Program-made: the position numbers and the translations under genes
Shown: one piece after another, positions 41,533 through 45,526 of the stretch
Layout of the letters: every line of letters begins with the position of its first letter
Numbering within the stretch: position 1 is the first letter of the stretch
Assembly: GCA_003660975.1 (NCBI GenBank)
Contig: QMVG01000001.1
Span: 96,001-160,000 of the forward strand
Length of the DNA stretch: 64,000 nt
Direction of reading: 5' to 3'
Source of the DNA: Candidatus Micrarchaeota archaeon
GTDB lineage: Archaea; B1Sed10-29; B47-G15
Notes under the pieces: generated by a model
The model's database searches: none
Told to the model about the DNA's origin: nothing
What the model saw: the letters and a program-made list of their open reading frames with translations, nothing else

Positions 41533-42138
41533 TTATGGGAATAACTTAACGTACTTTCCTAGATATGACGGTGGTGTCCTGAAAGGTATTGCTTCCAGAG
41601 CTCCCTGATTTGGCGTTAGTGTTACTGTAACATCTACTGATGGAGCTATGCCTGATGTCTTGTACCAGAACTCAACGATGTCATTCTGCTTCACTGATAC
41701 TCTTGAAGAGTTAGACAGTGTTGCAGGCTGTCCCAAATAGAGCACTGAGTATGTCTTTCCAGTGACAGTAGATGCCTTAACTGAGTCAACTGTGTTATTG
41801 GTTGACATATTGTAGTAGAGACCACTTGACTGTTCATCTTTAGTGAAGAATTCCATCAATGTAAAGTTAAGGTTCACTTCTGTGCTTCCTGGTGCCAGTC
41901 TCGCGACAATCCTCAGGTAATCTATCTCAGTTGGACTGTCTGCATTGTCTGTAACACCTGTTATTCCTGTTATCCTCAGCTTAGTTGAAACCTCTCCTGT
42001 TGATTCCTTTCCTGTTTGCAGTGCCTGTCCTTCTAGTGAGCCTACTGTTTGCAGCAATACCATAGCTGCCACAGCTGCCACTAGAATCATGGCAATGAAT
42101 ATTATCAGGACTCCTATTCCTGATATAGCTCTCTTCAT
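41533..42138 (-). CDS. flaB: Archaellin (archaeal flagellin), copy 1
   Basis: Class III signal MKRA/ISGIGVLIIFIAMILVAAVAAMVLLQT..SL..QA.QTG.E...EVS; LAPGS..VNL. Confidence 0.92.
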   Translation of the reverse strand: MKRAISGIGVLIIFIAMILVAAVAAMVLLQTVGSLEGQALQTGKESTGEVSTKLRITGITGVTDNADSPTEIDYLRIVARLAPGSTEVNLNFTLMEFFTKDEQSSGLYYNMSTNNTVDSVKASTVTGKTYSVLYLGQPATLSNSSRVSVKQNDIVEFWYKTSGIAPSVDVTVTLTPNQGALEAIPFRTPPSYLGKYVKLFP

Positions 42139-42152
42139 CTTTCATTCACCTC
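41998..42152. repeat. 155-bp near-identical direct repeat with 45386-45540 (archaellin 5' ends plus leader)
   Basis: Only 2 mismatches by direct comparison. Confidence 0.9.
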
Positions 42153-42227
42153 TGATTAGCTGTATGCTTATAAAAAAAGAACACCTTTTTAAAGCTTACC
42201 TTTAAATGTTCTGTAAACTTGTTGTTG

Positions 42228-42316
42228 GCATAACATATGGCATTATCCGAAGTTGGGTGTAAGCCCAATTTGGACGAAGGCAACTTGTTGCTGAAGTCGT
42301 TTAATGCCTGTTATAT
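42228..42316 (+). other. attC-like recombination site 1
   Basis: GCATAAC...GTTATAT ends, GGCATTA/TAATGCC stem, two internal hairpins. Confidence 0.5.
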
Positions 42317-42546
42317 TCTCTGAGCGTAAGCGAGGACGAGGAAAGCGAAGCTTTCCGAAGAGTTTGCCCCCGAGCGTTTTTTAAAATAAGAAGTGCCAGC
42401 CTAAATATTTAAAAATTAAGGATCTCAACCAAAAGTATTATTAAACAGTTGGAAACCAGTTTCACATACATAATAGTTAAGGTGTTTCATTTAATGGATA
42501 AGCAGAGCCACTAGAAGTGACTACTAAATGAAGGAGGTAAAAGAAA

Positions 42547-43143
42547 ATGAAGGGTGAAATGAGAAACAGGTTGGCTCTGCTTAGCGTCCTCCTAGTAGGG
42601 GGGTTGTTAATGGCAGGTATAGGAACAGCTATGGGAGCAGGGGGTCTGCTGAAATTTGCTGGAAAGCAAGTCAGCGCAGTGGCAATGAACGACCAGTTAA
42701 AGATATATGAAGATGGCAAATTGGTAGAGGAAATTACATTGCCAAAAGGAGAATATAGTATAGAAACATCAGGACATAAAATAGTATTTCGAAAGATGAC
42801 TAAAGAAGAGATTGCAAAAGCGCAGGCAGAACACGAAAAGGAGATGGAGAAGTGGATTGAAATAGTCAATAAAGACAGCAGAATACAGGAATTAACCAAT
42901 GGAAAAAGCGTACAGTCTAAAGAGGTAGTCAGTGCAATAACAGGCAATGGAGATGAAATAATCCTAATGGTAAAAGTTGAAGGCAGATACTACAAGATTG
43001 CAATAGATCTGAACAGCGAAACAGTGAAATCAATGGAGGAGAAAAGCTCTGCTGTGATGGAAAACTGTTATGGGTCAGATGGACCAACAGATTGTAGCGA
43101 ATTGCCAGCAACAGCAAGATATTGGAGCAGGGTGCATAAATAA
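42547..43143 (+). CDS. Hypothetical secreted/membrane-anchored protein (element cargo)
   Basis: SD AGGAGG; N-terminal signal-like hydrophobic segment; 198 aa. Confidence 0.8.
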   Translation: MKGEMRNRLALLSVLLVGGLLMAGIGTAMGAGGLLKFAGKQVSAVAMNDQLKIYEDGKLVEEITLPKGEYSIETSGHKIVFRKMTKEEIAKAQAEHEKEMEKWIEIVNKDSRIQELTNGKSVQSKEVVSAITGNGDEIILMVKVEGRYYKIAIDLNSETVKSMEEKSSAVMENCYGSDGPTDCSELPATARYWSRVHK

Positions 43144-43176
43144 GCACCCTTCCTTTTATTTTAGGAGGAATAGAAA

Positions 43177-43671
43177 ATGAAAAGCAAAAAAATTCACGGA
43201 AGAACGGTATTCATGGCAGCTCTATTTGTGGCTTCAGTATTCGTGCTTGGAATAAAATTGCTGAATCCTACCCCAGTACAGATTTTTATAGAAGGTCAGA
43301 ATACAGCAATTACCCAAATTCCAGGATTTTTCACATTTTTGGATGTGATAATTCTAATTGTGGCATCAATCACTCTTGCCATTAGCGGAATGTATTTGTT
43401 ATTCTTTGATTCAGTTGAAAAACCTGCTGGTGGATTGGTACTTGAGGAAAGAAAAAAGAGATGGGAACAAATAGTAAAAACATTGAAATCTGATGAGCAG
43501 AAAATTTATAAGGCAATAATTGGTTCAGACGGAATTATAGAACAAAGTGAACTTCCAGAAAAAACAGGACTTTCGAAGGCAAGTGTTAGCAGGGCTTTAG
43601 ATTTATTGGAAAGCAGAGGTTTGGTTGAAAAAAGGAGAAGGGGAATGGGGAATATTGTTTTGCTGAAATAA
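43177..43671 (+). CDS. Membrane-anchored winged-HTH transcriptional regulator (element cargo)
   Basis: Two TM helices, then LKSDEQKIY...QSELPEKTGLSKASVSRALDLLESRGLVEKRRRGMGN. Confidence 0.85.
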   Translation: MKSKKIHGRTVFMAALFVASVFVLGIKLLNPTPVQIFIEGQNTAITQIPGFFTFLDVIILIVASITLAISGMYLLFFDSVEKPAGGLVLEERKKRWEQIVKTLKSDEQKIYKAIIGSDGIIEQSELPEKTGLSKASVSRALDLLESRGLVEKRRRGMGNIVLLK

Positions 43672-43729
43672 TTGGGTAAAAACCGAACAAATCGAAAGTA
43701 TTTTAAAGAATATATAGGGTAATTAATTT

Positions 43730-44575
43730 ATGATGAAAACTAAAAACCGGAAACAAATTATAGTTTTGGTTGGTGGCATTTTGGTAGGCATTGTTACAGG
43801 CACAATAATAACTGCACACCATTTTGGACAGATGGGGGGAAGAGCTTTCCCTGAATTTATTTTTTGTGGAACTTCCGGTATTTTAATTGCGAGCATAATT
43901 AAATATTTAGTTGACAAACGTAAAGGAATAAATACCACCACTTCTAAGCTTATACTTGCAGTTAGTCTCTGTATAATAGTTGGTTTGTTGATTGGTGCGG
44001 GTATTGGCTATCATTATTTTTTCAAGCTAGAGGCTACTCCAAGTAATGGGCAATCTACAAAAATAGAACCAACTAAAGAAATGGTTGAAAAGATAGTCTT
44101 TTACGAAAAGGGTAAACAAGAAATTATAGACCTGAAATCTGAAGATGGAAAAGAAATAGCAAGTTTGCTTACTCGCAAACTTCATGAATTAAATCTACAA
44201 GCAACATGTGTTTTTAGCGAGGAAGATATTCAGGAAATAAAGCAAAAAGACAGAGTTGCAGAGTTAATTTTCAAGAAACCTGTAGATATTACAATTTCTC
44301 AATGGACTGAGCCAGAAGAAAGGTACCATATTCCTGTTGATGAAAAGGGGTACAGAATTTTGGAGAATGTCAAAATTGCTATATTTATTTTGGAAGATAA
44401 TCAAGAAAGAGGATTAGAAGCACATATCTTAGTCGGTCATAGAGTTGAGGGAAGAACAGGCTATAGTTGCTGGGCAATAAATATCAAAGAAGAAGGAAAA
44501 CCAGAATTAGATAAAAGTTGGATTGATAGGATAAACCGGTTAATAAATAAGGCGGGCGCTTCCAACATCTTTTAG
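43730..44575 (+). CDS. Hypothetical membrane protein (element cargo)
   Basis: Three N-terminal TM helices plus a soluble domain; stop 15 nt before the attC-like site. Confidence 0.75.
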   Translation: MMKTKNRKQIIVLVGGILVGIVTGTIITAHHFGQMGGRAFPEFIFCGTSGILIASIIKYLVDKRKGINTTTSKLILAVSLCIIVGLLIGAGIGYHYFFKLEATPSNGQSTKIEPTKEMVEKIVFYEKGKQEIIDLKSEDGKEIASLLTRKLHELNLQATCVFSEEDIQEIKQKDRVAELIFKKPVDITISQWTEPEERYHIPVDEKGYRILENVKIAIFILEDNQERGLEAHILVGHRVEGRTGYSCWAINIKEEGKPELDKSWIDRINRLINKAGASNIF

Positions 44576-44591
44576 CGAGGGGGCAAATTGA

Positions 44592-44649
44592 ATATAACGA
44601 GTATTAAGCGAGATTTTTATTCGCATAATCCCTTAAATTGGAGTTAAAG
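44592..44649 (+). other. attC-like recombination site 2 (58 bp)
   Basis: ATATAAC-GAGTA-TTAAG(C)G(A)GATT...AATCCCTTAA-ATTGGA-GTTAAAG: 5/6-nt spacers, paired arms with unpaired C and A. Confidence 0.55.
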
Positions 44650-44707
44650 CGAAAAAAGCTAAGGAGGTATTCTTATCAAACAGGCAAAGCTTATATCTCG
44701 GTTGTGA

Positions 44708-44808
44708 AAAGGTAAAACACCAGCAGAAGCCGTCGGACTTGATTTAGGATTGAAGCATAAGTGGCATAATTAATTGAATTGGCAACAATTTATCAGGTAA
44801 AAGGTTAA
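44708..44808 (+). pseudogene. C-terminal remnant of a DDE transposase (IS6/IS1-like)
   Basis: KGKTPAEAVGLDLGLKHKWH then frameshifted LIELATIYQVKG*; resembles the GKTPAEAAGI...KW..LI tail of archaeal IS transposases. Confidence 0.6.
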
Positions 44809-44920
44809 CACTTCTTTTTTGATTTCTTACTCAGATTAATTTTTTAATGAATTTACCAACAATAAGTTTACAGAAGCCCTTTAAATGTAAAATTAAAACA
44901 AAATAAAAAGAGGTTTTGAT

Positions 44921-45526
44921 TTAAGGGAACAGTGACACATACTTTCCTTCAAAGGAAGCGGGTGTCCTGAAAGGTATTGACTCTGGCACTCCCTGGCTTG
45001 GTGTCAATGTAACCTTCACTGATGTGCTTGGGTCTATGCCTGATGTCTTATACCAGAACTCAACCATCTCGTTCTTCTTTACTGAGACCCTTGATGAATT
45101 TGATAGAGTTACTGATTTTCCTAGATACAATACAGAGTAGCTCTTTCCTGTTATTGTAGCATTCCTAACTGCTATGATTGAGTTATTAGTTGACATATTG
45201 TATGAGATCCCTGAGGACTGCTCGTCTTTTGTGAGGAACTCCATTAAGGTGTAATTCAGATTGACCTCGTCGCTCCCTGGTGCCAGTCTGCCAACGATTC
45301 TCAAATAGCTTATTTTTGTTGGATTTGCTGCATTGTCTGTAACACCTGTTATCGCTGTTATTCTTAATTTTGAGGAAACCTCTGATGTTGATTCCTTTCC
45401 TGTTTGCAGTGCCTGTCCTTCTAGTGAGCCTACTGTTTGCAGCAATACCATAGCTGCCACAGCTGCCACTAGAATCATGGCAATGAATATTATCAGGACC
45501 CCTATTCCCGATATAGCTCTCTTCAT
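44921..45526 (-). CDS. flaB: Archaellin (archaeal flagellin), copy 2
   Basis: Same class III signal and N-terminal helix as copy 1; divergent C-terminal domain. Confidence 0.92.
   Translation of the reverse strand: MKRAISGIGVLIIFIAMILVAAVAAMVLLQTVGSLEGQALQTGKESTSEVSSKLRITAITGVTDNAANPTKISYLRIVGRLAPGSDEVNLNYTLMEFLTKDEQSSGISYNMSTNNSIIAVRNATITGKSYSVLYLGKSVTLSNSSRVSVKKNEMVEFWYKTSGIDPSTSVKVTLTPSQGVPESIPFRTPASFEGKYVSLFP

Follow-up and report, generated by a model that had tools for sequence, protein, structure and literature searches.

What is the DNA that separates two archaellin genes of a Candidatus Micrarchaeota archaeon, a spacer of 2.7 kb with three open reading frames (ORFs) on the plus strand and not one complete enzyme gene? 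The question concerns a window of 64,000 nucleotides, the whole stretch of DNA analysed here (contig QMVG01000001.1, positions 96,001 to 160,000), in whose own coordinates all positions are given. An earlier note on this window, made from its letters and their predicted ORFs, had recognized an integron-like gene cassette nested inside a derivative of an insertion sequence (IS). According to our analysis, the segment 42207-44877 is probably a decayed, non-autonomous member of a group of archaeal transposons of the IS6 type that are equipped with an integron-like cassette platform. Its parts follow each other in the order IS6 left end, hairpin, cassette, attI-like site, stump of a XerA-like tyrosine recombinase, stump of an IS6 transposase and IS6 right end. 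Both enzymes are broken, and the copy in the window thus represents a fossil with a single three-gene cassette.

The outer limits of the element were established from its inverted ends, its target duplication and an empty site. The top inverted repeat of the region is a pair of 20-nt terminal inverted repeats (TIRs; 42209-42228 and 44856-44875), which are 95% complementary with one mismatch. The left TIR (42207..42228, plus strand) starts with the tip TG followed by TTCTGTAAACTTGTTGTTGG, and the right TIR (44856..44877, minus strand) is composed of TTCTGTAAACTTATTGTTGG plus the tip GC. The corresponding 20-mer pattern, which has three degenerate positions, is matched with 20/20 nt at one end and 19/20 at the other and occurs twice in the window compared with an expectation of 0.01; both ends contain CTGT. 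The duplicated target of 8 bp, CCTTTAAA, could be read directly on either side (42199..42206 and 44878..44885). Contigs of four public sequencing runs (X1-X4) were aligned to the region, and one contig of run X4 joins 42198 to 44878, skipping 2679 nt, with 76 letters on the shorter side of the junction and 11 letters that are compatible with either side. This contig differs from the window at many positions, thus indicating that it originates from a relative, a different strain. The transposable shell, the outer tier of the two-tier mobility system proposed in the earlier note, is borne out by these observations as a non-autonomous element of the IS6 family. The flanking archaellin paralogs (41533-42138 and 44921-45526; Pfam PF01917, E 1e-27 and 3e-27) are both located on the minus strand. 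They represent a tandem of two 201-aa proteins with about 71% DNA identity across 300 nt, whose short spacer is occupied by the element, and the empty-site contig of run X4 itself looks like a hybrid of the two archaellin genes.

The distribution of the ends documents that the shell is not confined to this genome. The TIR 20-mer was found at 112 places of a collection with one genome per species, and the 80 TIR-bearing records listed are mostly archaeal metagenome-assembled genomes of many phyla, comprising DPANN, Bathyarchaeia, Archaeoglobales, Methanosarcinales, Thermoproteota, Thermococci and Asgard records; the matches of a bacterial minority lie within ordinary sequence. GG precedes the TIR in most relatives, and the 3' end of a DDE transposase gene is located inward of it in many places. 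The intact transposase of one relative (L114, 283 aa) was assigned to PF13610 (E 2.7e-25) and to the IS6 model NF033587 of NCBIfam (153.3 bits, cut-off 125). Repeats of 8 bp, GG tips and a cTGTt motif are listed for IS6 elements in the accessible part of a review of the family (PMC7986276). The window retains a C-terminal remnant of the transposase with stops (GKTPAEAVGLDLGL..., 44698..44855, plus strand), which was identified by tblastn and reading by eye; the transposase of L083 matches 44708-44770 with 52% identity over 21 aa at a weak E of 0.038. Two further observations concern the transposases of the relatives. The Woesearchaeota loci L058 and L114 have in common two small divergent genes upstream of their intact IS6 transposase gene, one of which begins with MKRILVSIPDG, and neither the left end nor the hairpin was found inside these 8-kb loci. 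Nested elements are present in L129 (reverse complement, about 100-900), where a second, unrelated DDE transposase gene is situated inside the N-terminal part of the IS6 transposase gene.

The left TIR is directly joined to a Y-shaped, attC-like hairpin module (42223..42316, plus strand), which is documented by a covariance-model match, by covariation and by its fold. The branched AAC...GTT hairpin described in the earlier note at this position is hence real. Its stems P1 (TATAAC/GTTATA) and P2 (GGCATTA/TAATGCC) are crowned by two terminal hairpins, and the segment 42223-42320 (plus strand) folds as single-stranded DNA with -15.4 kcal/mol (z -3.46), a value that was reached by none of 200 shuffles; folded as RNA, the segment 42205-42400 has a z of -2.65. 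The window hairpin is the top match of our covariance model R1 in its genome (66.5 bits, E 1.9e-11). It belongs to a family of about 90 nt with a constant shape and a highly divergent sequence that is located beside one end of many copies of the element. The family architecture comprises an outer stem TATAAC/GTTATA, a bulge of 3-5 nt exclusively on the 5' side, a second stem of 8-10 bp and a three-way junction with two terminal hairpins between GAAGTT and AATTTGG. AAC and GTT cores are present in the hairpins, and their transition to the left terminal repeat is fixed at TTGG/TATAAC in about 30 places.

The comparison of 27 hairpin sequences showed that 87.5% of the cells are paired, compared with 23-46% if the partners are slid. 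Double, i.e. compensatory, changes were observed in 16 of the 24 pairs, and not one of 500 shuffles reached any of the five measures. A single G-U pair is kept in 26 of the 27 hairpins, which indicates that the folding strand is the one reading inward from the end. The RNAalifold consensus of a plain MAFFT alignment was discarded, as it gave one helix; the other helices were set by hand and tested by pair counts. A search of the whole window against Rfam at the gathering threshold detected two tRNAs alone, and at E <= 10 over 42100-44950 it returned five chance-level matches and no family for the hairpin.

The hairpin is part of a series. A check for further AAC...GTT hairpins, suggested in the earlier note, yielded 11 matches of model R1 in the own genome, several of which lack a terminal repeat. 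Three of them are arranged in direct order on contig C14 (4161, 5916 and 6936), likewise without a terminal repeat, and two more were found on contig C118. Single minus-strand genes are packed between the hairpins of C14; about 20 nt separate the stop codon from one hairpin, and the start codon lies at a distance of about 25 nt from the following one. Direct arrays are also present within IS6-bounded elements (L061, L129, L057, L039 and L183), so that direct sites spaced by under 4 kb and separated by genes occur both in relatives and elsewhere in the own genome; the window element contains one hairpin and one recombinase-proximal site. An ORF is located within 400 nt of the 3' side in 44 of 54 hairpins, and it is antisense with its stop toward the hairpin in 34 of these 44 cases and same-sense in the remaining ten. 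The cassette-like genes of C14 (L137, 4161-11227) encode a 542-aa protein without a family and a 292-aa protein, followed by a methylase-like gene, others and a partial tyrosine recombinase. The latter, which is situated at the contig end, was rejected as a partner of the array, being 33% identical to the family, on the opposite strand and 3.7 kb away.

The association of the hairpins with a recombinase became apparent from a scan of metagenome contigs with the full-length recombinase P0002 (287 aa), from which the best 80 of 418 relatives were oriented with the gene on the plus strand. In these loci, 182,681 nt precede the recombinase gene and 226,981 nt follow it, and all 52 hairpins found are located on the recombinase strand and upstream of the gene. 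At least one hairpin is present in 35 of the 46 loci whose upstream sequence reaches 1 kb or more, and L242 harbors six. The stop codon of an antisense gene faces the hairpin in 40 of the 49 cases with a nearby ORF (52 examined). Downstream of the gene, an IS6 end follows after 35-100 nt in five of the 69 loci with at least 150 nt past the gene. A convergent, distant IS6-like transposase (29-34% identical to the clade of the window ends) is located within about 20 nt of the recombinase gene in nine of the 69 (L188, L191, L192, L194, L196, L197, L198, L203 and L204), so that the recombinase is paired independently a second time with enzymes of the IS6 type.

The window carries the traces of this recombinase gene at the other end of its cassette. 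The segment 44595..44654 (plus strand), a recombinase-proximal, attI-like site with a promoter remnant, aligns to the block that precedes the recombinase gene in L028, L037, L043, L082, L085, L087, L124 and the metagenomic loci. Its order is TAAC, the arm TATTAAGCGA (44602-44611), a 9-nt spacer, the arm TCGCATAATC (44621-44630) and GGAGTTAAAGCGAAA; the relatives have the same succession of elements up to GGAGTTAAAGCGAAA, followed by a TATA-like box some 30 nt ahead of the start codon. The conserved site of the metagenomic loci reads AAC, then ACTATTAAGCGA, 9 nt and TCGCTTAATAG. The arms of the downstream 58-bp site are present as described in the earlier note, but its proposed fold as a hairpin is not supported, because it folds no better than shuffles (z -1.34 on the plus and -1.17 on the minus strand) and model R1 has no match there. 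Instead of a second attC-like hairpin it represents a double-strand palindromic site that precedes the recombinase gene, thereby suggesting an attI-like role. The site is followed by a remnant of a XerA-like tyrosine recombinase (KLRRYSYQTGKAYI, about codons 25-38; 44656..44697, plus strand), which was detected by tblastn with the N-terminal peptide of L082 (12/14 identical, E 0.002); the start codon and the remainder of the gene are absent. The window, for which no integrase had been reported, hence contains a stump of about 14 codons together with a promoter and a site.

The stump is joined to the transposase tail at a GKTP motif that is common to both proteins, and similar fusions at short common motifs were observed in L061 and L124. 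The junctions at GKTP, AGIK and GAATATAA are indicative of microhomology deletions that shaped these elements. The recombinase gene of L156 and L159 stops short of the IS6 end by about 35 nt, and a transposase is lacking.

The assignment of the recombinase was based on its full-length homologues (284-302 aa), which share 64-73% identity with a 159-aa fragment from L124 and match PF00589 and, weakly, PF13495. The archaeal XerA model gave 192-221 bits, and its cut-off of 220 is reached by one of the five homologues. The integron integrase model TIGR02249 gave 185-195 bits in two pieces, below the cut-off of 265. Among solved structures, XerA (5hxy, E 1.3e-39; also 4a8e) and IntI4 (2a3v, E 4.2e-37) are about equal matches. 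However, query residues 193-210 (18 aa) stand opposite 63 residues of 2a3v (178-240), thus indicating that a long stretch of IntI4 is missing from the query or strongly shortened. According to the available parts of PMC8138268 and PMC9668308, integron integrases specifically possess and require an insertion in their catalytic domain, and the stretch missing relative to 2a3v is taken to hold this IntI-specific insertion. A recombinase that apparently lacks the IntI insertion and scores under the cut-off argues against a canonical integron. The search for IntI in the own genome, proposed in the earlier note, retrieved three tyrosine recombinases, all of which score below the TIGR02249 cut-off (best 130.1 bits), and the recombinase homologues across 401 genomes are mostly Xer-like genes with about 40% identity. 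An alternative that had been allowed for, namely a non-canonical site family of a tyrosine recombinase, fits these results well, as the sites are tied to a XerA-like enzyme. A fragment of a Xer-like recombinase is also located on contig C22 (L006) of the own genome, which is apparently far richer in G+C than the remainder (43% G+C); C22 could have been mis-binned or could represent a foreign element.

The relatives further document a turnover of cassettes at a fixed boundary. We compared 35 loci with enough sequence and considered pairs with at least 93% identity over 700 nt of site and gene. In seven of the 12 pairs (L188/L190, L191/L192, L202/L203, L202/L204 and three pairings among L214, L215 and L225) the recombinase side is 98.6-100% identical, whereas the adjoining 250 nt outside the site show no relationship (54-62%). 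All six junctions inspected, i.e. all but L191/L192, diverge at the AAC that directly flanks the palindrome on its outer side. The other five pairs are identical on both sides and probably reflect the same population sampled twice. A corresponding rearrangement involves the window itself: its third cargo gene (gene C) and the following stretch abut the hairpin in L099 and the recombinase site in the window, and the common DNA ends at GTTATATTC. In contigs of runs X1-X3, position 42397 is connected with 44535 of the opposite strand, as in the L099-type arrangement (36 letters on the short side, 90% likeness). The idea that attC-like sites capture the cassettes is hence retained in part: cassettes are replaced at the recombinase-proximal AAC of the relatives, but the downstream site is not attC-like.

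The limits of the cassette in the window (three genes, about 42311-44597, between the hairpin and the recombinase-proximal site) are defined by an inner inverted repeat. GTTATATTC at 42310-42318 is complementary to GAATATAAC at 44590-44598, TTTGCCCCC at 42363-42371 pairs with GGGGGCAAA at 44579-44587, and GAAGTGCCAGCCT at 42390-42402 pairs with AGGCGGGCGCTTC at 44550-44562. These six motifs and the end-to-end complementarity of the cargo had all been reported correctly, and the boundaries lie exactly at the AAC/GTT cores, as had been claimed. The inner inverted repeat (42297-42318/44590-44611) has 22 nt, is 82% complementary and ranks second after the TIR; the best inverted 22-mer match between the inner flanks has 18/22 positions, compared with a maximum of 17 in 100 mononucleotide shuffles, none of which reached 18. 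Such a complementarity is expected if both ends of the cassette were formerly paired as the outer stem of a single folded site. The hairpin is followed by a conserved stretch (42319..42402, plus strand) with two small hairpins including AAAGCGAAGCTTT, then AGTTTGCCCCCGAGCG ... GAAGTGCC, a layout that recurs behind the hairpin in many TIR-linked copies. An inverted, shortened copy of this stretch is located at 44550..44598 (minus strand) and ends in GAATATAAC, the right cassette boundary; the ATTGAATATAAC junction also precedes the recombinase site in L186, L194, L206, L230 and L243. A candidate explanation, in which the right inner region would represent the entire left end in an inverted and decayed form, was rejected, since its scores of 45.7 and 31.1 compare with shuffle maxima of 45.5 and 51.1 and the region aligns with the recombinase-proximal site instead. 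At 42345-42357 and in many left ends, the main hairpin is followed by small hairpins whose loop is GAA (GCGAAGC type); motifs of this type form unusually stable DNA mini-hairpins.

The cassette comprises three ORFs on the plus strand. Gene A (42547..43143, 198 aa) has an N-terminal hydrophobic segment and neither a Pfam family at cut-off nor a relative among the loci fetched. Gene B (43177..43671, 164 aa) encodes membrane segments and a C-terminal winged-helix domain (Pfam DUF7343, E 7.7e-12; MarR_2, E 2.2e-7). Gene C (43730..44575, 281 aa), a membrane protein without a family, is a recurrent passenger: it shares 75.7% identity over 218 aa with a gene adjoining a TIR-linked hairpin in L099 and 34% identity with a gene beside the IS6 transposase of L054. 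Genes A and C are both predicted to encode membrane or secreted proteins without a family. The 75.7% pair connects a small-genome (DPANN-like) archaeon with a Methanoxibalbensis record. A look for the same cargo with the same ends in unrelated taxa had been suggested in the earlier note; gene C does recur beside hairpins, but neither the three-gene unit nor gene A was found in the loci fetched. Pairs of toxin-antitoxin-like genes, HicB/HicA-like by eye, were observed as cassettes by hairpins in two unrelated records (L061, 1711-2160; L082, 1760-1880).

Taken together, these observations lead to the following scenario. In intact relatives, the Xer-like recombinase would exchange cassettes between the hairpin sites and the site upstream of its own gene. 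For the hairpin sites, the folding strand would be antisense to the cassette genes, and exchange would involve a single strand. The DDE transposase of the IS6 type would move the whole unit and leave target duplications of 8 bp. The assignment of each enzyme to its site, the exact crossover point and the way in which the window genes came to lie in the minority orientation are likewise matters of inference.

Several findings weigh against this interpretation. The genes of the window run in the same direction as the hairpin, an orientation seen in a minority of hairpins (10 of 44), and its tips TG and GC deviate from the GG rule. The own genome (1.33 Mb in 130 contigs, 89.7% complete; those of relatives comprise 0.3-1.2 Mb) yielded neither an intact IS6 transposase nor a close copy of the recombinase at E <= 1e-40. 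Closer homologues of the recombinase (60-83% identity) at 17 loci of other archaeal genomes are accompanied by one weak hairpin match in 95,777 nt, and an IS6 end is nearby in two of 35 such close-homologue loci. All IS6-linked recombinase copies that we read (L043, L124, L065, L087, L073, L156 and L159) are broken or cut by a contig end, and among the copies read there was no single intact element with both enzymes, the hairpin and both ends. The five genomes behind the loci contained broken copies or unrelated integrases and no intact autonomous element.

The simplest competing explanation is that of an ordinary mobile insertion cassette of the IS6 family, in which passengers replaced the transposase illegitimately, the inner repeats are a second, inverted left end and the hairpin is an untranslated or regulatory 5' region of the IS. 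The fixed junction of the hairpin with the left terminal repeat in about 30 places is in agreement with this view, and so are the short common motifs GKTP, AGIK and GAATATAA at the junctions, which indicate microhomology deletions. However, hairpins also exist without a terminal repeat and in tight direct arrays, and 52 of 52 are tied by strand and side to a tyrosine recombinase gene. The right inner region resembles the left end no better than shuffles do and fits the recombinase-proximal site, and in the transposase-bearing copies read the hairpin is not immediately upstream of the transposase gene. We hence regard an ordinary IS6 cassette as unlikely. The same hairpins could alternatively be a structured non-coding RNA, an antisense regulator or a processing signal at gene ends, whose link to the recombinase would reflect co-riding on mobile elements. 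This view draws on the G-U pair kept in 26 of 27 sequences, on other wobble pairs on one strand, on the fold as RNA (z -2.65) and on the antisense position to the 3' ends of genes. G-T wobbles are tolerated in folded DNA too, Rfam provided no match, and both the conservation and the cassette boundaries coincide with AAC/GTT cores that are common to the hairpin and the recombinase site, which makes a structured RNA in place of a DNA site very unlikely.

The closest known counterpart would be a canonical integron, or a cluster of attC sites without an integrase (CALIN), that happens to sit in a transposon. The direct sites, the one-way genes that end toward them, the recombinase-adjacent site and the AAC...GTT cores would all be explained. 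Archaeal attC sites are moreover known; the accessible text of PMC9668308 reports 539 of them in 75 archaeal genomes, mostly in clusters without an integrase, and the recombinase obtains 185-195 bits on TIGR02249. This score, however, comes in two pieces and is under the cut-off of 265, 18 aa are found opposite 63 of 2a3v, and the XerA structures match at least as well (E 1.3e-39). The one-sided bulge of 3-5 nt and the three-way junction of the hairpin also disagree with a canonical attC site. A run of model R1 on one draft genome of Vibrio, which may or may not contain a superintegron, gave two weak matches (E >= 1) with 150 of 704 candidates scored, which is weak evidence that the sites differ. 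A canonical integron or CALIN thus appears quite unlikely.

Archaea may even harbor a large undescribed class of integron analogues, a generalization that we put forward tentatively. In this class a mobile XerA-type recombinase without the IntI insertion would shuffle cassettes between Y-shaped single-strand hairpins and a palindrome before its own gene, and the platforms would repeatedly ride IS6-type transposons across phyla; such enzymes could serve the reported archaeal attC clusters that lack an integrase. The survey of archaeal integrons relied, as far as its available text tells, on integrases with the IntI domain and on the standard attC model (PMC9668308); in the same portion of the text the word "transposase" is found 0 times and "transpos" once, in the reference list. 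In the literature searched we found no description of an IS6 transposon combined with hairpin cassette sites and a Xer-type recombinase, nor any mention of transposases in connection with archaeal integrons, and the hairpins may already count among the archaeal attC sites (PMC9668308). If the proposed mechanism holds, the capture of cassettes as folded single strands is not tied to the IntI insertion, and a plain Xer-type enzyme suffices in Archaea. The elements would furthermore represent a concrete vehicle for gene flow among distant archaeal phyla.

Three known systems come closest to the element. Like integrons, it combines a tyrosine recombinase gene and an adjacent site with directly ordered, imperfect hairpins that contain AAC...GTT cores; its cassette genes mostly look promoterless, are closely packed and run one way, the folding strand is antisense to them, and cassettes are replaced at a fixed boundary. 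The nesting of the platform in a transposon resembles mobile integrons, which ride transposons such as Tn402/Tn21. In contrast to integrons, the recombinase lacks the IntI insertion and scores below the integrase cut-off; a Y shape and a bulge on one side characterize the hairpin, two arms of about 11 bp make up the palindrome of the recombinase-proximal site, and the carrier is of the IS6 type. The similarity to Xer/dif modules of Acinetobacter plasmids, as far as the available parts of PMC6449649, PMC13141974 and PMC2958812 describe them, consists in a Xer-type recombinase and in gene modules bounded by recombinase sites, and the site before the gene resembles dif in its two inverted arms of about 11 bp. 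In contrast to dif, which in these sources is a 28-bp double-strand site with a 6-bp spacer served by the host Xer, the recombinase is element-borne, the spacer has 9 nt and the partner sites are hairpins of about 90 nt. The palindrome is present once per element, and the other boundary is such a hairpin, which sets the element apart from a Xer/dif module. The IS6 family is reflected in the inverted ends with the cTGTt motif, the 8-bp target duplication and the IS6 DDE transposase of the relatives (PMC7986276). The accessible part of this review mentions one passenger-carrying member, two miniature derivatives and a typical length of about 800 bp. Unlike typical IS6 elements, those described here have 0.9-3 kb and unite a variable cargo with a structured site and a second recombinase.

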